Shown here: one piece after another, positions 2-27,240 of the stretch | Position numbering within the stretch: position 1 is the stretch's first letter | Layout of the letters: each line of letters begins with the position of its first letter | Position numbers and translations under genes: made by a program | Source: Caecitellus pseudoparvulus | Lineage: Eukaryota > Protista > Bigyra: Bicosoecida | Direction of reading: 5' to 3' | Length of the DNA stretch: 64,000 nucleotides | NCBI GenBank assembly: GCA_965644315.1 | Contig: CBFFRQ010000198.1 | Span: forward strand, 448 to 64,447 | The notes under the pieces: model-generated | The model's input: the letters and a program-made list of their open reading frames with translations, nothing else | The model's database searches: none | Told to the model about the DNA's origin: nothing

Positions 2-1471
2 TTCAAAAATTCATATATTGGATTTAAAAAAGCAGTTGTTAAATTTCATCACGAAGAATTAAAAGAAAACGAATTTAATTTATTACCACCTCTTAAATTT
101 AAACCTGAACCATACGAACAAACATCAGATGATTTAAAAGAGAAAGTTGATTATTTATTAAAAAATTATTTCTTACGTGTCTTATCAAATGGAAACGAGG
201 AGAATTATAATTATTTAATTAAATGGATAGCTAATATGGTTCAAGGTAATAAAAATACGTCTATGATAGTTTTAAAAGGTCCTGAAGGTTGCGGTAAATC
301 TACATTAATTAGATTTATTGAAGATATGCTAGGGCTTAAGAATGTTATTAATTCATCATCTCAACCACTAATTGAAAAATTTAATATGGAACTAATGGCT
401 AAAGTTTGCGTATACTTTGAAGAACTCACAGGAGGAACAACAAGAGGACAAAAAGCAGCAGCAGCAGCAAGATTAAGAGATTATATCACGAATCCATATT
501 TAAACTATGAAGAGAAAAATAAAAACCCATTAGAAAACATTAAGAATGTTTCAAATTTTATTTCTCTATCAAATGAATATTACGCAATCAAAGACGACCA
601 AGGCAGACGATATTTTATTTTAGATATTGACTCAAGCTTATTAGGCAATAATGAATACTGGGATAATATTCATAATAATTATGTTCATAATGAAAAAATT
701 TCAAAAGCATTATTTAATTTTTTTAATAGTGTTGATATTTCAGATTTTCAACCACTTAAAATGCCTATAACTGATTCAAAAATTAAAGCTCATTTAAAAT
801 CTTTTGACCCTTATATATCATTCATAAGAGAAAAATATTTATTCAAAAATAAAGGAATAGATAAAATTAAATGTAGAGATTTATTTTTAAAATATGCCAC
901 CTATTATGAAAAGGTATATAAAGAAACTATAAACACTAAATCACGTAAAACATCAGTTTTTTTCTATGATAGATTAGAACATTGGGGAATAAAAAAATAT
1001 AATAAAAAATTAGACGGTCGTAATGTTTATAAAATTTCATTTGAGGAATTAAAGAAAATATCAGAAAACTATAAATGGAATTTCAAATCAGAATATGAAG
1101 ACGAAGAAGAAGATGAAGAAGAGGACGACGAAGAAGAAATAGATTTTCAAGAAGAAGAAACAGAAAATAACCAAAAACCAGATTTTAAATCTCAAGCGTT
1201 AAAATATAAAAAAATATGTATAGAACAAGCACAAGAACTAAAAAAATTAAAGGAAGAATTAAGAGCGTTAAAATTAAATATTATTAAAAAAGAAGAGGAT
1301 AAATACGAGGATGACAGCGAAGATGAAGACAGCGACGATGAAGAAGAGATAATAACTTTATCAGATAAACACCAGAAATTAAATAAAAGTTTAAGTAGTA
1401 TGACAGCAGATAAAATCTCTAAGAAATCTGAGAAACCAGAATCAGACGATTTATTTAAAATTTCAATATAA
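2..1471 (+). CDS. SF3/D5-like (primase-)helicase, 5'-truncated by window edge
   Basis: Frame is open from position 2 (FKNSYIG...YLIKWIANMVQ). Walker A GPEGCGKS, Walker B VYFEE, motif C ISLSN, DQGRRY arginine finger; acidic/coiled C-terminus. Confidence 0.88.
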   Translation, partial: FKNSYIGFKKAVVKFHHEELKENEFNLLPPLKFKPEPYEQTSDDLKEKVDYLLKNYFLRVLSNGNEENYNYLIKWIANMVQGNKNTSMIVLKGPEGCGKSTLIRFIEDMLGLKNVINSSSQPLIEKFNMELMAKVCVYFEELTGGTTRGQKAAAAARLRDYITNPYLNYEEKNKNPLENIKNVSNFISLSNEYYAIKDDQGRRYFILDIDSSLLGNNEYWDNIHNNYVHNEKISKALFNFFNSVDISDFQPLKMPITDSKIKAHLKSFDPYISFIREKYLFKNKGIDKIKCRDLFLKYATYYEKVYKETINTKSRKTSVFFYDRLEHWGIKKYNKKLDGRNVYKISFEELKKISENYKWNFKSEYEDEEEDEEEDDEEEIDFQEEETENNQKPDFKSQALKYKKICIEQAQELKKLKEELRALKLNIIKKEEDKYEDDSEDEDSDDEEEIITLSDKHQKLNKSLSSMTADKISKKSEKPESDDLFKISI

Positions 1472-1761: not shown

Positions 1762-1803
1762 AAAAATATCTAAATAAAATATGTTTAAAGAAAAAATATT
1801 TTA

Positions 1804-1821
1804 TCTAGTATAATATATATA
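1804..1821 (+). promoter_or_regulatory. TCTA late-promoter-like motif upstream of polymerase
   Basis: TCTAGTATAATATATATA then ATG; near-identical leader at 15364. Confidence 0.7.
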
Positions 1822-3777
1822 ATGGCTCAACAACAAAAACCCACATTCACACAAAGTGAAAATATAGCAGCTAAGACATTTAAAGCATTCAACCAGAAAA
1901 CAAAGAAATATAAAGATGGAGATTTAAAAATATCTTTATTTGGAGTTTCTGATAATGACGAAAGCGATTATTTAAATTTTGATGATACAATCGATAACCC
2001 TGAAGATTTAAAATATTATTCTCAGGCAGTAAGAGAGCAATTAAAAGGGACAACAATAAAAACCACTCAAAATTATTTAAATGTATTATCTAAACTAGCA
2101 CAATATAAAAATTTAGATTATAATATAAGCGTTTTATTTTCTATCGGATGGCGTAATATTTCCAATGGTTGGAAGAATCCAGGACAAAGAATCAAAATAA
2201 AAGATTTTTTCAACCAATACAACGCACCAAATATTAAATATGTTTATGGTGTATGTATTACAACAAAACCACATATAGAACCAGAAGAAGCAGAAGCAGG
2301 GGCAAACAGTGAATATAACGATTGTTTATATTTATCTATCAGACGAGTAATAGGGCAAGACAGGATGAAACCTTTTACAACTGCAGGACGTTTAAAGAAT
2401 TTTTTAAATTTAGATAGAAAAGATAAAGTGCCATTAAAGGACATTTCAAAAATAGAAGATAAATTAAATATTAATATTAATGTTTATGGTTTTGAGAATC
2501 CTATTTTATCAACCAAATCTAACCCACAAACCGTTAATTTACAATACAAAGACGGACATTTAAAAAATAAATATAATAAAAGAAAAGGATTATCAGGAAT
2601 CAAAAAACATAAATCAGATTTAAAAATTATCATATATCAGGAAAATTTAGATTTCATTATTTATTATGATGGAATTACAGAAGAAAAGACCGATAAGATA
2701 ACTTTTTATAAAGACATCTATAAAAAACATTTTCATTTTTACCAATCCAACACAAAGAATGATATTAAATCAGAGTATGAAAAATATAAGAATGATATTA
2801 ACGAAATAAAAAAAGATGTTGATATATTAAAATTCAAATCAATCTCAGATTTTATTAAAAATGAATGTTATTATATTTCTCAAAAGTTAAACATTGAACC
2901 TTTAGAAAATCCATTAGAAATCCATTTTTTAAATAAATGTTTCAGTGGTGGTTTAATCCATTGTAAGAAAGGAAAATATAAAAATGTTAGATGTTATGAT
3001 ATTAACAGTCAATATCCCTATATTCTACAACATCAACATTTTTTAATGCCAACTAAAACAGGTAAATTTGAGAAATTAACAGAAACTCCAAAATTTTATA
3101 GATTTGGAATTTATAGAGCAAGAATAACAGGAAAAATAGACGATGCCTTATTTAATGTGAAACAATCTAATTTTTACACTAGCTATGAATTAACCAGAGC
3201 AAAAGAACTAAATTATAATATTGAATTAATCCAAGATGGAAGATATAATTTTTTATTCTATGATTCTAAAAGCCGTGTTAATGGTTCAATGGTGTTTAAA
3301 GATTATATTAAAAAGATGATAACATTAAAACAAACCTTTAAAAATAATCAAATCCCTAAGATGTTATTAAATCGTTTATGGGGTTTGTTATGTTCTAAGA
3401 ATTTTAAAATAACATCATTAAAAACATATAATCAAAGTATAAACAATATTAATTTTATCCATCCTTCTAATGATAATAAAGAATATGTAGTAAATTACAG
3501 CCCAGATAATCCATTTAATACCGATTTAAGCCGCTTAAGTTGCTTTCTCACAGCTAAAGGGCGTGTTTTAATATCTTCAATAATTGAAAAATACGTAAAA
3601 GACACAAGTAAAATATATAGAATTCATACAGACGGATTTATAACCGATAAAAACATTATCATTAATAAAATTAAAGGATTAGGGAAAGACGAATTAAGTA
3701 ATAATGAACTAGGAGGATTAAAAATAGAATATGAAAAAGATAAAATCAAAATAGTTAATGTAAATAAAATAATCTAA
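1822..3777 (+). CDS. Divergent protein-primed family B DNA polymerase (putative TP-vOTU-Pol, no recognisable exonuclease)
   Basis: FSGG pre-motif, motif A YDINSQYP, motif B KMLLNRLWG, motif C variant YRIHTDG, terminal LGGLKIE; N-terminal NDCL...DGH protease-like dyad. Confidence 0.8.
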   Translation: MAQQQKPTFTQSENIAAKTFKAFNQKTKKYKDGDLKISLFGVSDNDESDYLNFDDTIDNPEDLKYYSQAVREQLKGTTIKTTQNYLNVLSKLAQYKNLDYNISVLFSIGWRNISNGWKNPGQRIKIKDFFNQYNAPNIKYVYGVCITTKPHIEPEEAEAGANSEYNDCLYLSIRRVIGQDRMKPFTTAGRLKNFLNLDRKDKVPLKDISKIEDKLNININVYGFENPILSTKSNPQTVNLQYKDGHLKNKYNKRKGLSGIKKHKSDLKIIIYQENLDFIIYYDGITEEKTDKITFYKDIYKKHFHFYQSNTKNDIKSEYEKYKNDINEIKKDVDILKFKSISDFIKNECYYISQKLNIEPLENPLEIHFLNKCFSGGLIHCKKGKYKNVRCYDINSQYPYILQHQHFLMPTKTGKFEKLTETPKFYRFGIYRARITGKIDDALFNVKQSNFYTSYELTRAKELNYNIELIQDGRYNFLFYDSKSRVNGSMVFKDYIKKMITLKQTFKNNQIPKMLLNRLWGLLCSKNFKITSLKTYNQSINNINFIHPSNDNKEYVVNYSPDNPFNTDLSRLSCFLTAKGRVLISSIIEKYVKDTSKIYRIHTDGFITDKNIIINKIKGLGKDELSNNELGGLKIEYEKDKIKIVNVNKII

Positions 3778-3782
3778 AAATA

Positions 3783-3814
3783 TTATAAAGAATCTAATAA
3801 AAGATTTTTTATAA
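3783..3814 (+). terminator. 3' hairpin after polymerase gene
   Basis: TTATAAAGAATCT / AGATTTTTTATAA, 13-bp stem with one G-U pair. Confidence 0.55.
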
Positions 3815-5828
3815 TGTTATTTAATATGAACTTGAATAAATTGAAAAAACAGGATTTAAAAGAGTTTTTCAAATATCAATATGGAAAATATCCACCCTCA
3901 AATTTTAAAAAGAAAGATATTATAACAGTTCTAAGCCACGACATACAAACAGGGGCAGGAATAAAGGATTTTTTCAGAAGTAAAGCAAATTCAACATTTT
4001 CATTTTTAAAGAAAGGTTATAATAAGGTAAAAGATACATTTAAACCAGTTCAAAAAATAGAAGATACAATAACAAAGCCTTTTGATTATAGAACACGTCT
4101 AACGAATGAAAGCAGAAAAACACTAGAAGAAGTAGGCGATAAAGTAATTAATAACATAACAATTATTAGAACACCAGTAAATAAAACGTTAGTTAGTATT
4201 TTAGATACGTTATCATTTGGATATTTTAAACAATTAATGGAAAATCACGGATTCGATAAATTTTTCCATTTAGCCTTAGTTTTATCAATAGATGGGCGAT
4301 ACGTAATTTTAGAGAAATTAGCAGAGGTTAATATATCATTCAATTATAAGAAATCATATACAGAGCTTAGCGAATCAACAACAGTTGAAAACTATCAAGG
4401 AGGTTTAACATTAAATCAAATGGTGAATAAAACCCGTGAATTTATGGGCGATAAATTATTTTTTGATTATGACGCCTTCACTAATAATTGTCAAAATTTT
4501 ATTATGTCAGTATTAACGGCAAATGGACTTGACAACCAAAGAAATAAAGAATTTGTTTTTCAGGATATTAAAGAGATTTATAATGAATTAGAAAAGAAAG
4601 CGTCTTATTTATCACCTTTCGCTAAAATGACAACACGTTTAGGGGCTTGGTGGAATAAACTCACAGGAGCCGGAAAAAATCAAGCTGATATATTAACAAA
4701 AAAGAAACCAATAAACTATGGAATAGAAACAAACGAAATTATTAAAATGTTATCATTCAATTATAAAAATGTTGAGGTTATGGGCTCATCAGCTATTAAG
4801 GCTACTTTATATCCTTCAGATTTTGATTTATACGAAGTTGTAAAGGTAAAGAACTTAGAGGATTTAGAAAATAAATTTCAAGATAAAATATTAAAAATAG
4901 TTCAATCTAAAAATATATATTTAGGAGATGTTAAAATTGGAGTATTTCCAGAATTTAAAATTTTAAACAGATGATATATATGTATAAAAACGGGCGATTA
5001 ATAGGATATCAACCAAAAACAAATTAAGAAAGATATTAAAAGATAAATTATATTTTTTACCAAAACAAGAAAAACAAGAATTATTAAAACTCATTAAAGC
5101 AAAACCAACACCAGACGAATTAGATATTATAAAAGATAAATTAAGATATCATATATTAAGATGGACTCCAGACAGAAATATTGAGACGGTTATAAAGAAT
5201 TATCAACAAATAAATATATTAGTTTATTAGATGCTTTTAAAAGTGATGGATTATTTAAAGTTAGACGTTGTAGGATTTACCAGAAATAAATTTATTGACT
5301 TTTCCATAATCTACGAATTACGAAACGAGAAAACAAACAAACGAATAAATAATTTTATGGTTAATGTGAAAGATAATTTAAACGACCAAATAAGAACATA
5401 TAAAATAAAGGGTCAATATTTCAAAGCTCTAAAGCGTGAATTCTCAAAATTAAAACATACTTTCACATATACAAAAAATAAAGAAACCAAAGAAAAAGCA
5501 TTAAGAAGATTAAAAGAACTAACGGCATTTTTTAACGGTCAAGCAGGTATTATATATAGTGTTATTAATGATATTGAGGCGTTATTAAATGTTATAAAAT
5601 TATCTGAATCTGAATATTCAAGCAATGAAAAAATAATTAATGTTATTCAAAGTTTTATATATAGATTATCCAATATTTATTCAGTTAATGAATATTTAAG
5701 AAATGAAAAGAATATTTTATTAAGTATAAAAGCAATATTGAAAAATCCTGAAAATATGGAGGAAAACTTGGAACAATTTACAAAATATTTTATTTAAGAT
5801 ATTAAATAAATTTTCTAAATCTATATAA
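3814..5828 (+). CDS. Permuted papain-like domain fused to a Pol-beta-superfamily nucleotidyltransferase (virophage V21-like); frameshifted after ~4970
   Basis: FFHLAL (His 4267) and YDAFTNNCQNF (Cys 4489); then VMGS...SDFDL NTase motif (4783-4827). Downstream frames give YHILRWTP and KLDVVGF...DFSIIY, joining ORFs 3814..4974 and 5231..5797. End position inferred. Confidence 0.65.
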
Positions 5829-8481: not shown

Positions 8482-9277
8482 ATGCCTAGTTTTGAATTAC
8501 TTGATTATAAAAACTCTAAATTAAAAAAGGATTATACACCGGTTGCCATTGTTAAAGGTGATGAAAACCACAAAGACTTTAATAAATTCTTATGTTTAAC
8601 CGATAAAAACACGGGTCATAAAAGTATAAAACTACCTGATGATTTAATTTTTAATATTCTCCCATCAACAAAAAGGGGAAAACGTGATATTTTCTATATT
8701 GCTGGTGCTTCTGGTTCTGGTAAATCATATCAAGCAAAAATTATTTGTAATAATTATCATAGATTAAATCCGGATTTGCCTATATTTTTAATATCTAAAT
8801 TAGAAGAAGACGAAACGTTGGACGAATTGGACTATATCCACCGTGTAGATATTGAAGATTTTATAGAAGAATTTAATATTAATAATGAAGATTTAGCGGG
8901 ATTCTATATTTTTGATGATTTTGAAACATTAGAAAAACCTATTTTAGATAAAGTTATTAAAATCATTGATGATATATGTATTATGGGGCGACATAATAAT
9001 TTAACACTTAGCCTATATCAGCACACAATCTAACAAACTATAAAAAAACGACGGTTAATTCTTAAATGAATCCAGCACATATTGTTATTTTTCCTCAAAG
9101 TCTTCCTCACCTCATCAATTAGGCTATTTATTAAAGAAATTATGGAGGATGTGATAAAGACGAAATTAAGAAACTTACGCAAAGCTTAGGCAGGTGGACT
9201 GTGTGTCTTATACAAATTATCCGAATTATATATTATCTTCAAATTATGCTTATCTTTTACATCAGGACGAAGATTAA
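8482..9277 (+). CDS. A32/FtsK-HerA-like genome-packaging ATPase, frameshifted in 3' third
   Basis: Walker A GASGSGKS, Walker B FYIFDD, MGRH arginine motif; downstream frames give TNYKK.R and end YAYLLHQDED-stop at 9277. Confidence 0.9.
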
Positions 9278-9316
9278 AAAATAATATATGATATTATTAT
9301 TATATAATATATTATA

Positions 9317-9903
9317 ATGAAAAAATCTAAAAAATCTGACCCAGAACATAACGAAGAATTAAGACAAGAACTTAAACGATATTATTTATCAAATAGTGAT
9401 TTAGAATATTTATTTAATGATGATACAAATATTATAAGTTATGATAAACTATATAATTATAGACATATTGACGAAATCTTCGATAAAAAGGGGCGTTGTG
9501 TGTTATTATATCTGACGTCTGACCCTAATGTCGGTCATTGGGTAGGCACTTAATTAAAAAAGGAAACATTATAGAACATTTCGACCCTTACGGACACCCA
9601 CCAGACACAGCAACGGAAAATTTAGAGGCTTATGAAGAAGTAGAAAAACAAACAGGACAAGACGAACCCCGATTATTAAGAATGATAGACCAGGCGGGGT
9701 ATGGTTTAGAATATAATAAATACCCATATCAAAAGAAAGGAGAAGGTATAGGAACTTGTGGCAGACACACAGCGGCACGATTACTTTTATATAAATTATC
9801 TTTAGAAGATTATAAGAAATTAATGAAATCATTAAAAGATAAGAATTTAAAAGACTTTGACGACGTAGTCACCAAATTTACATATGATTTATTAAAAAAA
9901 TAA
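9317..9903 (+). CDS. Adenain-like (C5/Ulp1-fold) maturation cysteine protease, one frameshift near 9545
   Basis: GHW (His), EHFDPYG (Asp), YQ (oxyanion Gln) and TCGRH (Cys), split across ORFs 9317..9553 and 9538..9903. Confidence 0.9.
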
Positions 9904-9938
9904 TTTTATTAAAATATTTTATCTAATATATATTAATA

Positions 9939-11083
9939 ATGTTAAATTCTACAATGTATCAAGACGATAAAAATATTTATTATAATATTGATATTATCAA
10001 CGGAAGAAGCACAAGCCAAGGCAAGATTAATGACCCTATTGCCAGTTTTTCAGAAACACGAGACGTGCCTTTAATTAATGATGCTAGTAAATATAAAATG
10101 TCTATTATTCGTTTTACTATGAATGGTATAAATGATTTACCTTTATTTATTCCAGTAATTGAAGAAGGACAAACAACCCCTAATAAAACCGTTTATAAAA
10201 TCACAGTTCAACATAATCATATAGGCGGGCAACGTATACGAATTTACACAGCCCGTTATTTGGGAAAGCAACGATAGCAAGCTTAACTGCACCTTCAAAT
10301 TTTGAAACACAAGGACAGGACGCAACACAAGAATATTACTACTGCCACACATACGACCATTTTATTAATTTGGTTAATACTAGCTATTACATATTCTATA
10401 GCACAATTAAACGCATTAATTAAAGTAGATTTTCCAGCATTTACAGATTTAATACGCCCTTTTATAGTATATAACAACGCAAATAAAAAATTTGATATTT
10501 ACTATCCCGCAGATAATGACGCCGGTTTTTCGTTTTATTTTAATTCAAATTTATATAATCTTATTGTCTCATTATCCGCACGAATACAACGATTTAGACG
10601 AAGTTAAACAATATAGAATTATCCCCCGTAATTATCAGGGTTTAAACTAGTATAACGTTAAATAGTGTAGATTATATTAAAATAGAACAGGAGGCGGTAA
10701 GTCTTAGGCACATATTGGAGCCCTATAAGTTCTATTGTTTTTACTTCTTCATTACTTACCTATTATATCTGAGGGTGTTTCTCAACCTATCAAATTTGGT
10801 AATTCTAACAATGCTAATGCCGTTTCTTCGGTTTCTAATTTTGAACCTATTATAACTGATATCAGCCTTAACTTTAGATGATGCTTATAATTACAAGGAC
10901 TTTTTATCCTACATTCCAGGGGCTGAATATCGTTTCGTATCTCTTACAAATTCTAACCAACCTATAAGGAACGTGAATGTGAATATTTATTGGAAGTATC
11001 GGCTAACAGGTCAATTAGTGCCTTTGAAATTATCCAACTTATCCAATATCTCTATGAAGTTTTTATTCCAGCCTAAATATTAA
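9939..11083 (+). CDS. Virophage minor capsid (penton) protein, multiply frameshifted
   Basis: N-terminus IYYNIDIIN...FSETRDVPLI.D.S.Y..SIIRF..NG..DLPLFIP and C-terminus IYWKYRLTGQLVPL...SMKFLF match the virophage penton pattern; lies directly upstream of MCP. Confidence 0.85.
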
Positions 11084-11163
11084 AAAATATCTAGTCTAAG
11101 ATTTTTAAGAGTATACGTGATTTTTTAAAATAAAAATATAAGGGTTTATTTTTAAAAATATTT

Positions 11164-11178
11164 TCTAAAATATATTAT
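11164..11178 (+). promoter_or_regulatory. TCTA late-promoter-like motif upstream of MCP
   Basis: TCTA in AT context, 11 nt before ATG 11179. Confidence 0.7.
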
Positions 11179-13060
11179 ATGTCTCAATATAGAAAAAGTT
11201 AAAGTTAATGGACAGCCCGAATCGTCCAACCTCAAGCTCAAGATATGCCGTAAATGAAGGAGCAGTAAGTATCTACGTCAATACATCCAATTTCCAGGCT
11301 GCCACTGCTTCTAGTTCTTCACGTGCTTCTTGCAATATTACTGCACCTAATCAGCAATACGTTTATGGACCGTAATCTTGCCAGTAAGTGTTGATATTAT
11401 GCGGTAAAATTACTGCTACAATTACCACTAAAGATGGTAATCCCGCAGCCTTTCCAGTAGGATACCCAGGAAAACCCAGGTTTAACAGGACTGCCAGTTT
11501 TTACCCCCGGTGATTCTATCGCCCCCGCTGCTTATCCTTTCCAATCTTGTATGAGCACCACCACCGCAAACTATTAATAATTCCACAGTCTTCCGTGAAT
11601 TCTTCAAGATGTAATTTATGAAATTCTTAAAATGTCAGCTTCTAAAAGATAATCATAAAAGCAAGAACAACACCTTCAATGCTTGATAAATACGTCTCAT
11701 TATAATGACAGCACGCACACTTTCTAACAGTCAGTATTGAAAGGATATCAAGACAGCTTTAAATAATGATAATGTGCCAAATGGTGCTTTTCAAGGTTTT
11801 CAATGGGTTAAAGAAAATGGAGAACCTGCCGTAGCTGCTGATTATCAATGGCAAACACAAACAGGAACCGCCGTTTCTTGGAGTCAAACCGTATATTTTA
11901 AACTAACCGTCACGGAAAACTTAATTTTAAGTCCTTTCATTTTTAATGAATCTCAAGAAGATAACGTAGGCTTATACGGTTTAAATAACATTAAATTAAT
12001 GTTTAATGTTGGCGATGTTTCAAGAATGCTAAGATATACCACAAACCATAATTTATTAAATGATTGGAATTTCTCATATTCTCCCGTAAGCTTAAACGGT
12101 CAAGAACCTTTTAAAAATGCCGTTATTAATTGCACTTTTAGAACACCAAGTTTAAGTCTACCTTTACCAACTCGATCTATCGTGCCTTATATGGAATATC
12201 CCCGCTATATTACTACTACCGGGGCTAATATTGCTGATGGTTCAAGTGCTTCACTAACAAGCCAAACCATAACACTTTCTCAAATTCCTGATTTACTCTT
12301 AATTTATGCTAAACCTAATTTATCAGGTAATAACACATTAGGCGACCATTATTTACCCGTTAAAAAAATTTCTATGAATTTTATGAATGTAGCCGGTATT
12401 TTATCAAGTCATACCAAAGAGCAATTATTCCACATTTCACAAAATAACGGCTTAGATATGGACTGGAACGAATACTGCGGCGAAGCCTGGACCGACCAAA
12501 TCGCAACCGCAACTACTGGCGGTATTCCTGCTTCTAATGGTAAAGTTTCATTATGTGGTGGCTTCCTCGTTTTACGTCCTGGGGTTGACTTTGCTTTACC
12601 TGCTGGAGTTGCTAGTGGTTGTGGCGGAAATTTCAACCTTCAATATACCGTTGAAGTAGAAAATAAAAGCGGTCGTGCCGTTCAATCTCCTACATTATAC
12701 ACAATGGCTGTTAATAGTGGTTTCTTTGTTTCTGAAAACGGGCAATCAGCAATTACAACCGCTCCATTAAACGAACAAGACGTAATCCAAGCACCTATTG
12801 AAGGCGACACAATGTCATTAAAACGATATGTTGGCGGTAGTTTCTGGGATAAAGTAAACTCAGGATTAAAAAAAATAACAAATCATGAAGCTTATAAAAT
12901 GGCTTCTAAACTTGGAAAATCTGCTTTACGTGATGTAGGTATGGAAGGAAAAGTAGCAGCCGACGTTTTAGATAAATTGGGATTAGGTGTAAATACAGGA
13001 GGTGGAAAAACTACAGGTGGAAGAAGACGAAAAAATAACCTTCAAAATTTATTAAGTTAA
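11179..13060 (+). CDS. Virophage major capsid protein (double jelly-roll); 5' third frameshifted
   Basis: ATG 11179 with IEKVKV...RIVQ...YAVNEGA in shifting frames. Clean ORF 11774..13060 with TENLILSPF, SQTITLSQIPDLLLIY, YVGG-SFW and a basic Gly-rich tail. Confidence 0.93.
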
Positions 13061-16563: not shown

Positions 16564-17622
16564 TTATTTTTTCTTAGAGTTTTTTTTATATTTTTTCACT
16601 AAATCAGGAACCTGAGAATTTATGCGTTTGGCTTCTTCGTATGTTTGCTCTTTGTATCCCTTCCATTTTATACGATAATATTTTTTATTCTTAATCTTTT
16701 TCTCTCCTGTTATCTTCTCTACTTCATAGCGTTTATTATCTTCTATTTCTTCTGGTTTATCTTGTTCTTTTGGATTATATAAAAGTTGATTTCGTGTGTA
16801 TCCTGTATTATCTATACCTTCAATAGTATATATTGGCGGTTGTCCTGGTGTAATTAAAACACCTTCTATTTTTCTTAGTTTGTTTTCATATCTAAAATCA
16901 CCCGTTCTAAATAATGTTCCGTGTAATCTTTTACCGTCTATATTTTGTGGATAGTCTAAAATAATTTTTACTAAATCTCCACGTTTCAATATGTCTTTTG
17001 GTATATATGGCATTTTGAAAAATTCTTTAATTCCTATTTTTGGTCGTTTTAATATTATTTCATTATATAATTTCATGATTTGCGGGATAGTTTCTACCCA
17101 TTCTTTATTTTCTTGTTTATGGATGAGTTCAAAATTTTTTTGTTTCAGTGCTATAATACGCCCTAACGTTTTATTTAATGCTTCAACAACTGCTGTTTGC
17201 CTATGTCTTGCAACTCTTGAATTTTTCAACGTCGCATTATCTGAACTCTCAAAATATTTTTTAACATCCCCTTTACATTCTTTGCCATCATCTGTTTTAA
17301 ATATCACGGATGGAGGGTTTAAATATTTTCGTTTCCATATTCTCTTTAACGCTTTCAATACGGTTTTGCTTTCTTTATTTTTTAATGGCTCAGCATCTGC
17401 GGCTTTTGTTGCTACATCTACCACAACTAATAAATATTTATAGCCTTTATCCTCTGGTAAAAATAATAAATCACCTTGTTGAATACTATCTTTAATTAAT
17501 GCTTTATGTTTTGGTATCTCTTCGCCTTTATCTTTCTTTGGAGGTTTGGTTAATGTTGTTAATTCTGATTTTTTAGAATCTTTAAAAATTTTCAATTCTT
17601 CCAAAATCTTATCTGATATCAT
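16564..17622 (-). CDS. Retroviral-type (rve, DDE) integrase with C-terminal chromodomain
   Basis: QGDLL, YLLVVVD, KTDDGKE and VVEALNKTL (D-D-E triad); C-terminal YEVEKI...YYRIKWKGY...TYE chromodomain. ORF is intact. Confidence 0.93.
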   Translation of the reverse strand: MISDKILEELKIFKDSKKSELTTLTKPPKKDKGEEIPKHKALIKDSIQQGDLLFLPEDKGYKYLLVVVDVATKAADAEPLKNKESKTVLKALKRIWKRKYLNPPSVIFKTDDGKECKGDVKKYFESSDNATLKNSRVARHRQTAVVEALNKTLGRIIALKQKNFELIHKQENKEWVETIPQIMKLYNEIILKRPKIGIKEFFKMPYIPKDILKRGDLVKIILDYPQNIDGKRLHGTLFRTGDFRYENKLRKIEGVLITPGQPPIYTIEGIDNTGYTRNQLLYNPKEQDKPEEIEDNKRYEVEKITGEKKIKNKKYYRIKWKGYKEQTYEEAKRINSQVPDLVKKYKKNSKKK

Positions 17623-18999: not shown

Positions 19000-19650
19000 T
19001 TATTTGCTTTTTTGTTTGCTTTTTTTGTCTTTATTTGCTTCTCTGTATTTTTTTTGATACTCTATATTCTTTTCTTTATTGACTTCCCTATATGCTTTTA
19101 TTTTGTCTTTATTTGCTTCTCTGTATTTTTTTTGATACTCTATATTCTTTTCTTTGTTGGCTTCCCTGTATTTTTTCATTTTATCTTTGTTTGCTTCCCT
19201 GTATGCTCTTTCTCGTTCTTTAACTTTTTCTTTGTTTGCTTTATTATATTCATTTTGATATTCCTTTTTTTTTTCTTTATTTAGTTCATAATACCGTTTT
19301 TTTTTTTCTTTTATTGTATCTTTATTCGCTTCATAATATGCTTTATACTTTTCTTTATTGGCTTTGTTATATTCTTTCATTGTTCTTCCTGGTATATTTT
19401 TATTTACACATTCCATTTTTTCAATATAATATCGTTCTCTTGCGTGTAATTCCTCTTTACTTTGACACGGGTATTTTTCAATTAAAATAATATCAAAATC
19501 ATCATAATTAGCTAATTCTTTTGACATACAAGAATTTTTATTTATTTTATGTTGATGTTTTCTCTTGGATAATCTCTGAGTTGTTGAACCAATGTAAATT
19601 TTTCCACCTCCTACAAGCTTATATATTTTTCCGTCGTTGTAATTAACCAT
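19000..19650 (-). CDS. GIY-YIG endonuclease with tandem basic helical repeats
   Basis: NYNDGKIYKL...IYIGST, R...H, ELHARERYYI; followed by repeats of the Y(R/Y)EANK(D/E)K type. Confidence 0.88.
   Translation of the reverse strand: MVNYNDGKIYKLVGGGKIYIGSTTQRLSKRKHQHKINKNSCMSKELANYDDFDIILIEKYPCQSKEELHARERYYIEKMECVNKNIPGRTMKEYNKANKEKYKAYYEANKDTIKEKKKRYYELNKEKKKEYQNEYNKANKEKVKERERAYREANKDKMKKYREANKEKNIEYQKKYREANKDKIKAYREVNKEKNIEYQKKYREANKDKKSKQKSK
19023..19155. repeat. 78-bp-period direct repeat inside the GIY-YIG gene
   Basis: 19023-19077 is identical to 19101-19155 (TTTTGTCTTTATTTGCTTCTCTG...TTTTCTTT). Confidence 0.9.
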
Positions 19651-19734
19651 TTTATTAGAATAGTATATACTGTTCTTTTTAAGTCGTTTTTATGTGTTTT
19701 TTATTATATATTCGCACACGCCCCACGCTATGTC

Positions 19735-20116
19735 TGATTTAGTGTTTAAGTGATTTAGTGATTAAGTGTTAAGGGTTATAATGGATTTAGTGTTAAATGA
19801 TATATGAATAAGTGATTTACAATGTATCTTTTTATTTTGTCATTTCGCCTCCTTTGATTGTTTCTAAAATAGGGTAATTGGATGGATGGTTGATTGCTTC
19901 AATTTTGTTTTGACTGATTGTTGATGAAGTGTTAAGAATAGTCTCAGAAAAAATATATATATATATATTTATTATATTTTTTATATTATTTCTATTTATT
20001 GTAGTGATAACCCTTAAGATAACACTTATAAAATAGTAGTAAAAAGTAAGTAAAAAATATATTAAAGGGTTTATAAGTGATTGTTTTTATAGGGATAGTG
20101 TCTAATAAGTGTTATA
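19735..20116. repeat. Subterminal short imperfect repeats (probable TIR interior)
   Basis: TGATTTAGTG(T/A)TTAAG in tandem at 19735 and 19751; related AAGTGTT/AAGGGTT units at ~19783, 19810, 19927, 20063 and 20104, and inverted at ~20008-20028; non-coding. Confidence 0.6.
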
Positions 20117-20677
20117 GATATAATATAAATATATCTAAGAATGGTATTTATAAATAAAGTCTAAAAATATAGTATAAAAATATATCTGTTTTTAGTCGCA
20201 AACTGCGGCAGCAGTTGAGACATATCGCTCATAAATTCATTTATGGATTTATAGTCCCCCGTCGGAAACCGGCCCGGGATAATGGGGGAAGTTGAATTGT
20301 GAACTGATGGAATGTCTGAGTGGGTTGCGCTGGCTGCGCACCCCCCCCACGAGACCGAGCTCTGGCCCCCTCGCGGGCATGTGGACCTTTCTACCAAGGG
20401 GCGGGCGTTGAAACGCCCTAGCGAAGCGGCGGCTTATACAACGGACTCACGTCTGTGCTGGCTGCAGATCCATTAACATGGTAGCCGCTGTGGTGTACAT
20501 CGTGGCGCATTCGTGCGCGACGGTGAGCAGGACACCACGTGTGATGCCCCAGCTGCACCGCGCCTGTGGCAAGCGTGGAAGCGAATTGCAATGCATTGAA
20601 CTGTCTAACCCTTTTGTATTCCACAAACAAGCCATTGAACAGTGGATGTGGTTGAGACACGCAGCACAGCAAGCAAT

Positions 20678-20761
20678 CAAAAGGGTACAAATACGATCAA
20701 GCACACAGGTCTGCAACTTGCAGAGTATTCCTGTACACTGGATCCTATTTGTACCCTTTTG
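20678..20761. repeat. 84-bp near-perfect inverted repeat
   Basis: CAAAAGGGTACAAATA / TATTTGTACCCTTTTG perfect 16 bp; 27/32 matches over the full arms; inner palindrome TCTGCAA-C-TTGCAGA. Confidence 0.85.
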
Positions 20762-21220
20762 TCGGAGAGAACTAAATCTATATTCCATGTATCCATTATC
20801 TGCTTATCGAAGTATCTGGGCGGCTGCTCACGATTGCCGGGGATTGGCGGCGCTGCTCCTTCGTTGAGCGGAGGAGGTGCACCGGCGGGTGAAGCTTGTG
20901 AGAGAAATCCGACCTCGGCTGTCATAGGACCGCCTCGCCGCCAAGGAGCCTCGCCGGGTGCGCTGCTGCTCCACCATTTCTGCAGTGTCTGACATGTGCC
21001 CCATGGTCAGACGGCGTGTGCGCTGCAGAGGGTTCTCAACCTCTCCGCTGCCCCTGCCAAGGTCTGCCCTTTCGCTAAAGCTTGCACGCGGACAGGCAGC
21101 ATTGTGGGTCGAAGGTGTACCTGGTGCACCGGGCATTGAATGGCTGAGGTCTACAATGCCAGCTTGGGAGCTGCGCGCCGCTGCAGGAATCGGCAGGGCT
21201 GCTAGCTGGTCTGGTGCACT

Positions 21221-23248
21221 CTAGCGGCGGGCTGGAAGGTTGGGCGCCTGATTTGCTTGCCCCGCTAGTGGTTGCGAGGCGACCTGTGCCTCAGCGCCAG
21301 CTGCTTCATCGCTGCGTGCAGAGGTGGGCTTCAGTTTGCCTGCACGTAGTAGGTTGGCCACGTTGCCTGCACCTGCCTCGGTGATGGACAGCAATGCTGT
21401 CTTCTGCAAGTCCAACAATGATGTTGGCTGGGCTGGACGTGTACCTGATTCCGTCCTTGGCGTGTCTGTTGTCATGCCGCTCGTTGGCACTGCGTTGGGA
21501 GAGAATGCCACTGACACGAGGGCGGCTCCCCTTGGACCCAGTGCCTGTAGCACGGCATCAGCATCGCTACGTGAACTACAAGCTACACCTTGCCGCACCA
21601 TGTCACCGGGTAATAGCAGCACAGTGCTCAAGCTGGTGATGGTACAGAGCGCGGCTGGCTGGATGCGAGAACCCCTCACCAGTCGCTGTGCCAGGGCTGA
21701 CACAATGTCCACGAGCGTCGGCACTCGACTGCCCACAATCTGCCCCACAGTGCTGTCCCCTGCACTGTCTGTGCTGTCCAGCTCAGGCAGCAGGGCCCGG
21801 ATGCGGGCTCCGACACGAGCCAGCACTGCCCGTGCCGCTGAGCTGTACCCACGCACCATCACCAGCAGAATAGCAAGCAGAATGACGCCTTGTGAAATGA
21901 AAAGCAGAGCATCCGTGACTCCCCGCACTCCTGCGGGTGGGCGGAGGCTGTTCACGCCCACCAGCACCACCTCCAGCAGGATGCCGCCTTGGGCCATGAC
22001 ATCCAGGTCTGTCAGCTCCTCCAGACACCAGGGCCGCCGCCACCGCACGAGAAGCAAGCTGCCCAACACCACGCCACCCACCACACACAGACGCAGAATG
22101 ATGTCAGTGGTCAGCCATGTGACACATGCCACGACAGCGACAAGGGCGGTCTGCGTCGCGAGAAACGTGTGTGTGGGCAACAGCCAAGCGAAGCCCCAGC
22201 ATGCTGCCTGAGCTTGCTCAGCCTCAGTGACAGCGGCCTCCGCGATGGCACTGTTCTTATGGCCGCCTCCATGAGCCACAAGGTTCCGAGCTTGCACTGG
22301 CGTCATCTGGATGTTGTGGCTGTTTGACACGAAGCCACGCACGGAGGCGCCTCGCAATGCAGCGGTGCTCGCTCCTCGCCACTGCCGCCAAGCCATGAAG
22401 GCGACAAAACCCACACTGCCTGCCAGAATGTGCAGCACGAGGGGGAAGATGAATGGAGTAGTAGCCTCTGTGATACCACCTGGCGCGTTGGCATCGGCCA
22501 GTGCTTCGTGCTGAAGTCGCAAGTCAACCAACTCGGCGTGCAGCTGCAGCAGAGCTGGCAGCAGGCGGACGTACGCAGCTACTGGGAGCCACAGCAACAC
22601 ACTGCAACACACACCACGCGTTGTGCCAGCTGCAGGCTCGGTAAGACCCAGCGTCAGTGCGGATGCCAGGAGCAGGAAGGCACCCAGCGCCACCATGAAC
22701 AGGTTGCCGGCGTTGCCTGGACTGGATGGGTCGCCACCACCTGCAGCACACGCCACAGAAGGCAGGCTTGCCAAGTTGCTGGAGCCAGTGATGCCAGACA
22801 GCACAGCCATGCCACCTGCGCTAGCTGAGTCAGTGCCAGCATCGCGAGTATACAGCGTGCCGTTCAGATTTGAGGCGGGTTCGCCTGCCCACGGCATGGC
22901 CAGCTCACACGTACCTGCCCACTGATGCAGGGAGTGTGCTGACGCCTGGAGAGAGTCTGGGCCCGATGGGGCGAGGATCGCGATTTGCGCTGAAATGCCC
23001 ATGAACCACAGCATGATCCGCAGTCCGCCGAAGAACAGGCTGGTGGTGAGGTTTTCAGGAGACTTGGCATACTTGCGGAGAACAAACACTGCCAACGTCA
23101 TCGCCATGATGACCTGCAACACAGCAGAGCCAATGGCTGCACATGCTGACGATAATCTGGTGTCAGGATGCTGCTCACAAACTGAACAAGGGGGCGTGGC
23201 AGCCCAGTGCCTCCCTGATGTCCCCATCGGACGTGATCGTCCCTCCAA
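21221..23248 (-). CDS. Host multi-pass membrane protein (possibly 3' part or degenerate copy of a Cys-rich receptor-like gene)
   Basis: 675-aa ORF with many hydrophobic segments and a remnant CSVC motif at the start; true 5' end unclear. Confidence 0.5.
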   Translation of the reverse strand: MEGRSRPMGTSGRHWAATPPCSVCEQHPDTRLSSACAAIGSAVLQVIMAMTLAVFVLRKYAKSPENLTTSLFFGGLRIMLWFMGISAQIAILAPSGPDSLQASAHSLHQWAGTCELAMPWAGEPASNLNGTLYTRDAGTDSASAGGMAVLSGITGSSNLASLPSVACAAGGGDPSSPGNAGNLFMVALGAFLLLASALTLGLTEPAAGTTRGVCCSVLLWLPVAAYVRLLPALLQLHAELVDLRLQHEALADANAPGGITEATTPFIFPLVLHILAGSVGFVAFMAWRQWRGASTAALRGASVRGFVSNSHNIQMTPVQARNLVAHGGGHKNSAIAEAAVTEAEQAQAACWGFAWLLPTHTFLATQTALVAVVACVTWLTTDIILRLCVVGGVVLGSLLLVRWRRPWCLEELTDLDVMAQGGILLEVVLVGVNSLRPPAGVRGVTDALLFISQGVILLAILLVMVRGYSSAARAVLARVGARIRALLPELDSTDSAGDSTVGQIVGSRVPTLVDIVSALAQRLVRGSRIQPAALCTITSLSTVLLLPGDMVRQGVACSSRSDADAVLQALGPRGAALVSVAFSPNAVPTSGMTTDTPRTESGTRPAQPTSLLDLQKTALLSITEAGAGNVANLLRAGKLKPTSARSDEAAGAEAQVASQPLAGQANQAPNLPARR

Positions 23249-25199
23249 GCGCGGCTGTCTTGGCTGGCCCTGTGGGTGTTGCTGGGCTTGTTAATGGCGT
23301 GCTCTGCGCATTCCATGCCCCTAGGACTGCCTGGGACAGCTATCATGACCGTCCGTACAGTGCTGGGACGATCAAGACTGCCACCCCATCATGGAGAAGA
23401 GACGGTGACGGCGCTCTCACATAATGCGGCTGAGTTGGGCGTCGCTCCGTCACTGCTGGATGGAAAAGGTTCAGTGGACGCCGCAAAGAAAAGGGAAGCG
23501 ACTGACAAACGAGAAAAGATGTTCTACAGGTACATCGAGCTCTCTGAGGCCACGGATTACAAGGCAGGAACCCTGGCAGGCACGGCACACGCCGTCACAA
23601 AGGAAGACTGGGCCGCGCAGGTTGCCGCGAACACAGCCCTGGCCTGCTCTGCACACACCTTGCAGGTCCAATGGCAGTCTGTGGGAGTGACTCTTCTTCT
23701 CGGCGATGTATCCAGCCCACCACACTGCCAGGCCATGCCAGCGGAGCGAACCAGTCCCGCTTCGCCGCTTCCACATCCTGGGCTAGCTGAAGCGATACCC
23801 ACAGCAACACGGCCCAGCCGCACCACAAACAGCGTGACCAGAATGGACGTCGACAATACCCAGCCACGCGCTCCCCGAGCAGGCGTGCACCGAAAGATTC
23901 ACCAGCTCCACCTCAAGGTTGGCCGCCTCCGCCTCAGCTGCAAACGCCAGTGCCGCATGGGTCAAAGGCCCGGCCGGCCACATGCAACGTGCAGCGCAAC
24001 AGTACATAGGTGCAGAAGGGTGGGCTTTCTTATATGCCTCTCGTCAGTAAGGGGGCAACCAGCTGCAGCGCTGGGCGCTGGAGCAGGGCTGGCCTTGTGC
24101 TGGGTGGTGTGGAGGGAGTTTCATCCTGAGCGGCGGACAATCACAAGCCGCTTGTTGAAATGCCTGGAGCACGGTGGAGGCAGTACACATGCGACGAATA
24201 CGCTTCACATGTCTACGTCCACCTCGCCCTCCAGCACCGGGGAACTTCACCCTGCCATGAAGAGGCGGCCGGAATGCTCAGCTGCATGGCAGAGGTTGGT
24301 GTTGGCGGTGCGAAACGCGAAGCCACTCCGACACAGGGCGCTTCTGGCTGGACGAATGGTGCTGCTAGAAAGATTGGAAAACTGCATGTCGAAATGATTC
24401 CACTGGATACATGAAGCAGTGAAATGTGGCAAATCTTTCTGAACTGTCGCCGCAAGACGCCAACAACGTTGTGCCGGAGAGCTACGCAAAAGTCACAAGA
24501 GACTCACAAGGTACTGGATTTCGCAATACACTTCCATGTTTTTCATGCACTGCTCCCCACAGGCATGCACAGGCTGGACGTAGCGGACGGCAGTTGCCCT
24601 GTCCACGCCACAGCCCCCAAGCACCTCTACAGCGCCTGACGTGCATGTGCTGTGACCTCCACCGACACCAGTCGCTCGTCCAAGCGCACTGCCCACCAAG
24701 GCCTGCCTTTGCTCCCACAAGTATCATGACCACGACTGAGGCTGCAGGAAGCTGCTTGAAGATTGATCTCTCTCACGCCGTGTGCCTTAGCCTTGTTGTC
24801 TGCCCAGCAGCTGGCCGAGGGTGCCCTGTGTCGAGCGTGGGTGAGGTGATCAAGGAAGAATGCAGGCGCCCATGCAGGCTGTGGCAAGGCTTCGATATCG
24901 CAGCTCAAGCCACTTGACGCCCCAAATCACGCCCTCCTTGCAGCTTTTGGCCTGACCCCAGCCCCAAGCTTGCGAAGCCTGGCCCGTCCAGGTACAGCGG
25001 ATGGCAGCGAACGAAGCCAAGCCTCCACTGCAACCTGCGCCCATCATCCAGAGAAGCACCCCCACAAGTGCAGAGTGCACACCTATGCAGCAGCAACCCA
25101 CGGTCTGAACAGCTCCATCGGCGTTCGTCCGTGGCGAGTGCTCGTGTCGCCCCAGACAGCGTCCTTGACTGCCTCTGCCTCGTTGTCCCCTGTCGCAAG

Positions 25200-26480
25200 C
25201 CACGCCTGATGAGCAGCTGCTCGAGCTCCACCCAGACCCATGAGCTCCCTATAACCGCAGCAAGGACCTTCTCGTATGCTAGACGGAAGCCAGCTTCATG
25301 TCAGACGCACACTTCCACACTTCGACCATTACTCAAGGCAACAAGCTCCCGAACCACGCCCAAGTGGCCGATGGAGCTGGCCCAGACAAACCCGAAGTCA
25401 AGCCCGCCTGCATCCCCAATACTCGCATCCACAGTGAAAAGGCCTGCTTGAGACAACACCCCCTGCACAGCAGAAAAGCGCCACTCTGAAATGCCCATCG
25501 AGCGTCGAACTCTCTCCGAGCATGCACGCCGCGAGTCTGCTCGTCAGCCAGCCTAAGCTGCTCACGAAGGACGATCACATGGCCGCCATGGCACATCTTC
25601 ACAAGCCCGGCCCCAGATTCTTTCCCATTGCTTGCGTGCACGTCTACAGCTCGCCCCCTTCAAAGTGCGAGAAGCTCCCACAACACATCCACATGCCAGC
25701 CTGAAAGCAGCTCTTCACCTGGTTCCACCTCTCGCGTGTTCGTCAGCTGCCCGGCCACCATACAAGCTCAAAAGTGTCACCAACATCCCAGGTGTCCATG
25801 GTAGCATGCAAGTCGAATCCTGGCCTCAGGCCCATGGAGGCCTGCTGTGTGCACGTCCACAACCCGCTCTCCTCCCAAAAGCGAAAGTCTCTACTCTGCC
25901 CGCAGAAGTAACGCAGCTCTGCGCCCCTGCCGAGTGCTTGTGCCGTCCCACACGGCATCTTTGCCGGCCTGGACAACAGCCAGCCCGGCATCAAGCCTGT
26001 CCTGCAGTGGAATGATGCGGCTGCCAGTCAGCGCCAGCAGCTCTCGCGTGACACCCACATTGACACCTTGGAAGGCAAAGCAGAAGGCAACCCCATTGCC
26101 CGCGTTCACATCCACAGTCCGCTGCCCAGTCAGAGCCAAGAGCTCTCGCACGATTTCCTCATGGCCAAATGCGCACGCTTCGCAGAAGCCAGCCTCGGGC
26201 ACACCCCTTAGCCCGGCAGGTACTTCCACTGCCCGGCCACCCTCCAAGGTCAGGAGCTCGCGGACCACTCCCAAGTGACCGTTCTTGCACGCACCCCAGA
26301 ACCCTCCTTCGGGCCCAAGCTAGTCCCTTGCGTGCACATCCACGGCCCGCGGACCAGTCAGAACTACGAGTTCACGCACGATGTCGACGTGACCATGCCC
26401 ACATGCCTCCTGAAATCAGACCTTTCGCCCACCCAGGCCGCCAACATGCACATTCCTTGCACCTTCACCTGCCAGCGCCA
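25200..26480 (-). pseudogene. Degenerate ankyrin-repeat gene cluster
   Basis: Repeated A(C)..GH..VVRELL.L.G.R.V(D/E)V units in different frames; in-frame TAG at 26320-26322 upstream of ORF 25891..26274. Confidence 0.7.
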
Positions 26481-27240
26481 GGACGTCGCGGACTTCCTGC
26501 ACCCTTCTGACTCAACAAGCGGCCAGGCGTTTGGCTTCGCCTCTGCCACCTCCTTGTCCATCTCCCAGCATGAAAGGGCTGGTCAGGTCAAACGACATCA
26601 TTGTACCCGACGGAACGAAAGAGCCTACCCATCCGAACGGTGCTTGCCATCCCTCCTCTGGCGCTGTTCTGTGCGGCTGTCCATCCACCGTGGTCCAGCA
26701 AGCAGATTCCGCAACTCCGCATGCACTGCAGCTGTCCAGTGTGCGCTGCAAGCTTTACAACAGCAACCCGCCTACACTTGAGTATATTCACCCCACCCCT
26801 GTCATTGACTTCTGCGCCTGAGTGCAGGTGTGAATTGCATCGCGCCTCGTTTTTGCGCTGGCGCTGTCACTGCTTCGCCCAGCTGCTGGCCACGCCAAAC
26901 ACCCACAGCTGGCGCTCCACCCTTCCTGCAAGGCCTGGCGCAGCAGCACACCAGATCCCAACTTTCAATCAAAACTACTTCACCACCACAGGCCTTCGCC
27001 ATCCTGCACACCTGCTCAAGCTCCCCGCCAGACCGCGCAAGTGGCACACTCGAGCCACAGCAAGCAGCTTCGGAAACTCAGCAGTCTCAGTACGCCCACC
27101 CTGACCCCGTCCACACACAATGCGCCCAGCAGTCATCTGTGTTCAAGGTGCATTGCCTTCACACAGCTCACCAGGTGCACAACGTCAGCCTACCCGCACA
27201 CCAGCTTCGCACCATAGCCGCTGAGCAAACTCGACACATC

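Follow-up and report, generated by a model that had tools for sequence, protein, structure and literature searches.

The window, by which we mean the whole 64-kb stretch of DNA analysed, changes in composition at position 20260: bases 1-20260 have a GC content of 28% and the remainder 63%. Besides a PD-(D/E)xK nuclease, the AT-rich part carries the following genes and features.

2..1471, plus strand: superfamily-3-type helicase (DUF5906; PF19263, E 3e-16), with its 5' end outside the window
1804..1807, plus strand: TCTA in an AT-rich stretch, with its first base 18 nt upstream of the ATG; resembles the CroV late/mavirus promoter
1822..3777, plus strand: gene for a mavirus-type protein-primed PolB (pPolB), 651 aa; top Foldseek match mavirus polymerase
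2005..2280, plus strand: predicted terminal-protein domain, aa 62-153, with a Y-family little-finger fold (model and fold search)
2299..2304, plus strand: G160-A161, the equivalent of the family Gly-Gly and predicted cut site between terminal protein and protease
2302..2583, plus strand: vOTU cysteine-protease domain, aa 161-254, with C168 and H246 (OTU folds, Z 6-7.3; conservation)
2617..2901, plus strand: exonuclease remnant and linker, aa 266-360, with the first strands and last helix of the phi29 fold and without a conserved catalytic set
2947..3774, plus strand: polymerase core, aa 376-651, with motifs A, B and C and TPR1- and TPR2-sized insertions (phi29, Z 20.0)
8482..13060, plus strand: morphogenesis block of ATPase, likely protease (two ORF pieces), penton and major capsid protein, with broken frames
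16564..17622, minus strand: rve integrase with chromodomain
20256..20260, minus strand: probable right-hand end of the element (minus-strand sequence 5'-GGGGG), past which GC goes up from 28% to 63%

Translation of positions 1822-3777 on the plus strand gives the 651-aa reading frame that a preliminary description had reported, and the motifs named there are present. Cys168 is encoded by TGT at 2323 in the context NDCLY, His246 by CAT at 2557 in the context DGHL, and motifs B and C read KMLLNRLWG and YRIHTDG. Motif A is YDINSQYP, with D393. A full-length protein from another assembly (P0002) is 99% identical with 9 substitutions, and contigs of two other runs cover the gene with 0 gaps at 1960-3434 (X6) and 1776-3306 (X11), which together rule out an assembly artefact as the origin of the frame; minority one-base deletions at 2400 and 3734 in run X2 count against this. 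A Pfam search with the 651-aa protein gave no match, and a single-sequence search of the PDB gave nothing useful.

An AlphaFold2 model of the polymerase has a mean pLDDT of 84, with aa 1-9 and 29-64 unreliable; a second model comprises aa 62-375, and solved chains were compared by VIA-align. Against viral models, Foldseek placed the mavirus polymerase first (E 3.4e-42, 649 columns, 24% identity), about 20 orders of magnitude ahead of the second-ranked match (7e-22). The best solved structure is the phi29 polymerase (Z 20.0, model residues 265-651 on phi29 5-501), which is also the sole match of the family profile (see below) to PDB sequences (E 1.2e-5). The 651-aa ORF is a mavirus-type pPolB, the architecture of which has already been published. 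Models and fold searches support the interpretation given in the preliminary description, with the domains in the order terminal protein, vOTU, dead exonuclease and polymerase.

At the N-terminus, aa 62-153 match five Y-family little fingers with Z values of 4.8-6.1 (Pol kappa 6.1, Pol iota 5.5, Pol eta 5.5, PolIV 5.2) that are middling and mixed with designed proteins of similar Z; the same little fingers were matched in the published mavirus-type analysis (PMC11161782). The suggestion that the first ~160 aa are the terminal protein is therefore upheld for the fold at aa ~62-153, whereas aa 1-64 form an extension modelled with low confidence. OTU domains match aa 160-254 with Z up to 7.3 among solved chains, and both models give the OTU as well as the little-finger matches. 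Residues 779-874 of the TYMV protease map to aa 164-251, which, taken from the range ends and assuming no gap, aligns C168 with C783 and H246 with H869, the catalytic dyad of the TYMV OTU (PMC5695851). The proposed vOTU-like Cys-His pair is thus in register with a catalytic dyad, and both residues are invariant among the relatives described next. Z values of 4-7 are middling, but the matches are numerous, come from the families expected and follow the expected order.

A single-sequence search found 23 relatives of the polymerase, and a profile built from 21 of them, searched against 1.84 billion representatives, matched 4,627 clusters with E<=0.001, of which 1,466 reach E<=1e-30. Locus searches turned up only 4 distinct contigs carrying a relative, and two single-protein scans turned up none. 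Alignment A2 consists of the query and 149 near-full-length relatives, drawn from the 23 and from the best 150 among the matches listed; it leaves out fragments and some rows, and this sample of 150 leans to close relatives. Six residues (C168, H246, D393, K513, G521 and D604) are invariant in 150/150 and W520 is kept in 143/150, while motif C reads HTD in 128/150 and DTD in 0/150. Given this conservation of the catalytic residues and of HTD across A2, the motifs are not due to chance, and the change from DTD to HTD recorded earlier proves to be the family norm. The short stretch before motif A is likewise confirmed, with 147 aa from the His to motif A here and 142-190 in the family, compared with phi29, where the distance between ExoI and motif A is by itself 240 aa. 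The rarity implied for this layout did not survive, since the same organisation has been published for mavirus; a rare or unique architecture was rejected. Every feature that had seemed striking is the norm in the family.

HTD in place of DTD, together with the broken ATPase, protease, penton and capsid frames of this sequence, could mean that the provirus is dead and its polymerase decayed or inactive. We regard this as very improbable. PolBs that lack the first motif-C Asp have been described as active (PMC11161782), and HTD was rejected as a sign of inactivity given its prevalence. In addition, there are the 1,466 clusters matched at the stricter threshold, the polymerase frame is intact in other assemblies, and the single-base differences of the ATPase and penton regions from other runs fit assembly errors or the decay of one copy.

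The region between protease and polymerase core is reduced. In the second model, aa 266-335 superpose on residues 5-187 of the phi29 polymerase (67 residues, rmsd 2.8, Z 4.2), and total absence of an exonuclease domain was rejected on this ground. The modelled remnant has three strands, a helix and a fourth strand, and then jumps to a long helix, EYEKYKNDI, which aligns with EYEYIKNDI of the phage M2 polymerase with D325 kept and the Tyr not; we take this to be the ExoIII helix. The inferred ExoI positions hold Q273 and N275 and the ExoII region is deleted, which leaves D325 only. Among the A2 sequences, Asp occupies column 273 in 40/150 and column 325 in 44/150, any acid is found at all three positions in 2/150, and the full set D273/E275/D325 in 0/150. 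With no member carrying the ExoI/ExoIII acid set, proofreading has very likely been lost in the mavirus-type polymerase. The earlier claim that the proofreading domain is lost accordingly holds for its catalytic acids and not for the domain, which is shrunken rather than absent; aa 250-375 do not form an exonuclease with a conserved set of catalytic acids. In phi29 the exonuclease domain forms the template tunnel together with TPR2 (PMC6351526), and the small exonuclease fold has probably been kept as a wall of such a tunnel.

The polymerase core aligns with phi29 by profile, including the TPR1- and TPR2-sized insertions (probability 94%). Motifs A and B are 120 aa apart, versus 134 in phi29, and B and C 87 versus 71 aa. 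The C-terminus is short: 47 residues follow the catalytic D604, within a family range of 34-73 (median 42, A2), versus 117 in phi29, and the structural match, which ends at phi29 residue 501, does not reach the thumb at residues 538-575 (PMC1475753). By these measures the polymerase has no phi29-type thumb, and by C-terminal length the same holds across the aligned family (A2). We did not find thumb loss in mavirus-type polymerases in print, and the word "thumb" is absent from the available portions of the texts of PMC11161782 and PMC13215967.

Loss of the thumb should lower processivity and thereby favour another explanation, in which the enzyme only primes, yielding a short product, and a giant-virus polymerase carries out elongation. 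The thumb and exonuclease domain of phi29 form the tunnels on which processivity and strand displacement depend (PMC1475753, PMC6351526), no member of the family has the C-terminal length to match phi29, and the TCTA promoters suggest that the element depends on a giant virus. All core motifs and both TPR-sized insertions are nevertheless retained, and the element brings its own helicase, a feature linked to exonuclease loss by Krupovic et al. (2024, PMC11161782). A priming-only enzyme is therefore unlikely in our judgement, and less likely than a mavirus-type pPolB that also elongates.

A second family-wide feature lies ahead of the protease. Gly-Gly occurs no more than 16 residues before the OTU Cys in 127/150 members of A2, 124 of them with 6-9 residues in between, compared with 2.4% of other 16-residue windows and only 5/150 after the His. 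A true GG is absent in 23/150, including the query, which has G160-A161 at only 6 residues from C168. OTUs cut after Gly-Gly, and among viral OTUs that of TYMV cuts KLNGA and another RLIGG (PMC5695851), so that GA is an allowed site. We consider it likely that G160-A161 is the terminal-protein cut site and is self-cleaved by the OTU, even though the distance of 6 residues from the catalytic Cys makes a cut in cis geometrically tight; for the exact position and enzyme (OTU, after A161), the chances are about even. A Gly-Gly site before the OTU Cys was not found in print for mavirus-type polymerases, in the portions of the literature available.

The same polymerase could instead have its Gly site cut by the virophage maturation protease, with the OTU acting mainly as a deubiquitinase. 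The adenovirus protease trims the adenovirus pre-terminal protein, and a likely protease gene is present in the element. The mavirus maturation protease cuts GG|X and GX|G in the capsid protein (PMC6048507), and GG does not, for this reason, identify the cutter. Three points speak against this protease: the local GA|N fits neither motif reported for the mavirus protease; P4 is mostly K/R/T/A/P in A2, unlike the adenoviral (M/I/L/N/Q)XGG; and a PLV-type contig (L001), a single case, keeps the GG with no protease match in 14,062 of its 15,725 bases. Cleavage by the maturation protease thus seems quite unlikely, and we continue with release by the OTU. Upstream of the site, column 133 holds Y in 59/150 and S in 41/150, that is, one or the other in 100/150 (A2). 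Tyr133 (2218-2220) is in a loop before the last strand of the terminal-protein domain, where published linking residues lie, and is a likely candidate for the linking residue.

The genes around the polymerase are those of a virophage. TCTA, the motif of CroV late and mavirus promoters (PMC8547959), begins 12-24 nt before 9/18 hand-picked start codons versus 54/595 background ATGs. The major capsid protein matches PF22031 (V20_C, E 4.5e-45) and the penton PF21507 (V18/19, E 6e-7); a PDB sequence search with the capsid protein, to E<=1, returned Sputnik V20 (E 4e-23) and no mavirus capsid. Candidates for the packaging ATPase (a P-loop ORF, 8482) and the maturation protease (a split His/Cys ORF, 9317-9903) match same-position genes of two related contigs (L002 and L003) and have no diagnostic Pfam match. 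The ATPase, protease, penton and capsid frames (8482-11740) are broken by single-base differences from contigs of other runs, in which individual bases of the ATPase and penton regions are missing at several sites; this is consistent with assembly error or with decay of this copy alone. Directly downstream of the polymerase, a 386-aa viral ORF (3814-4974) gives a weak LRAT/NlpC-P60-like signal (H...NNCQ, Pfam E 0.1); the sequence after it hints at a nucleotidyltransferase-like part and passes into broken frames that extend to 5797. Near the other end, a 216-aa ORF (19000-19650, minus strand) contains 11-residue tandem repeats, with similar ORFs in L001 and L002; its N-terminus is GIY-YIG-like. 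Marine metagenomes and several organism runs contain sequence near-identical to window positions 1-20260 (20 rows from 10 studies).

Contigs of two runs (X1, X6) join the flank from 20261 to other preceding sequence, which makes 20260 the likely end of the element. Its 5'-GGGGG resembles the GGGG start of PRD1. None of the contigs listed spans 20260/20261, and integration therefore rests on composition and gene content. No terminal inverted repeat was found within the 64-kb window, and positions 19500-27500 gave no Rfam match. In the flank, eukaryotic ORFs (ARM-repeat, MFS, SPRY) run on for long distances without interruption; one of them, of 9,717 aa (27241-56394, minus strand), has several SPRY domains and predicted membrane segments, with no Pfam match in its first 4,965 aa. 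Positions 20261-20600 look repeated (higher contig depth) and at 20599 run into CCCTAA-type telomeric repeats in two runs, hinting at a subtelomeric repeat as insertion target, as reported for Halocafeteria virophages (bioRxiv 2026.07.28.741278).

Together, the four predicted modules, the family-wide conservation and the adjacent helicase, integrase and capsid genes lead us to hold, with good confidence, that the locus encodes the four-module mavirus-type pPolB of a virophage. Expression would start at the TCTA promoter of the gene in the course of a giant-virus infection (late expression). At the G-run where the genome ends, the terminal-protein domain would take up the first nucleotide, likely on Tyr133. 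The OTU dyad would then cleave behind G160-A161, so that an 18.5 kDa protein stays attached to the 5' end of the DNA while a 58 kDa protease-polymerase is released. This enzyme would carry out elongation, using D393 and D604 to bind the metals, and without proofreading would be error-prone. The adjacent SF3 helicase would assist elongation and likely compensate for the lost exonuclease bulk and thumb.

The architecture is not new; the points added here are the family Gly-Gly site before the OTU Cys and the absence of a phi29-type thumb. Self-release of the terminal protein by the vOTU has so far been a prediction without a site. This family points to a precise position for it, which here follows residue 161. 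It also provides a Tyr as candidate linking residue, and its natural GA variant helps in telling the OTU and the capsid protease apart as cutters. If correct, this reading of the Gly site would identify the cut site and the enzyme that have long been sought for fused terminal proteins. A thumbless replicase without proofreading in >1,000 protein clusters would bear on the copying of 20 kb by virophages and on their mutation rate. Whether mavirus-type polymerases are the smallest protein-primed replicases, lacking proofreading and thumb and carrying a GG/GA self-cleavage site 6-9 residues before the OTU Cys, we judge to be evenly balanced.

Among known systems, the closest is the mavirus pPolB (A0A1L4BK92, 617 aa), described as a terminal protein, an active vOTU, an exonuclease remnant and a palm without the first motif-C Asp, with cleavage predicted between terminal protein and vOTU and a lower fidelity inferred (Krupovic et al. 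2024, PMC11161782 / bioRxiv 2024.03.18.585575). It shares with the present protein the domain order, the missing Asp and a similar length, and is its best structural match; both elements have an SF3 helicase as a separate gene and an rve integrase. The two differ in sequence (24% identity), in an N-terminal extension of ~60 aa here, and in the capsid, which matches Sputnik V20 and not the mavirus MCP. By its capsid sequence the element leans outside the genus Mavirus and the EMALEs.

Wei et al. (2026, PMC13215967) report polymerases of this kind from 97 eukaryotic genomes and 2,450 metagenomes; in their data DUF5906 is specific to the mavirus group, and capsids mix freely. Group 1 of the pMVRE elements described there shares the pPolB, DUF5906 helicase, rve, chromodomain, endogenous occurrence in protists and the differing histories of capsid and polymerase; gene content and the mavirus match suggest that our element belongs to it. 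Window positions 1-20260 combine a Sputnik-like capsid with a mavirus-type helicase, polymerase and rve module and CroV-type TCTA promoters, and L001 (2137-6853) has the same polymerase type, rve-chromo and helicase with a PLV/NCLDV-type capsid; the replication module moves between capsid types. Relatives also occur on contigs labelled giant virus (L028 2058-4238 and Foldseek rank 2; a GVMAG contig and "Harvfovirus"), which may be virophages that were co-binned or are integrated. Both the Halocafeteria preprint (bioRxiv 2026.07.28.741278) and a preprint on mosaicism describe virophages other than mavirus that carry pPolB, rve and CroV-like promoters. The Halocafeteria virophages and the low-GC EMALEs of Cafeteria burkhardae (PMC8547959) are likewise AT-rich in GC-rich protist DNA, with helicase then pPolB at one end, an rve integrase and the TCTA motif. 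EMALEs are, however, reported to be unlike Sputnik and to have TCTA in type 4 only (PMC8547959), whereas TCTA, a Sputnik-like capsid and 28% GC occur together here.

Canonical polinton and adenovirus pPolBs have a full exonuclease domain with the ExoI-III acids, which this protein lacks. The phi29 polymerase (PDB 1xhx) shares the palm, fingers, TPR1 and TPR2 insertions and the first strands and last helix of the exonuclease, and differs in that its exonuclease is complete and active, its motif C is DTD, it has a thumb, and its terminal protein is separate.
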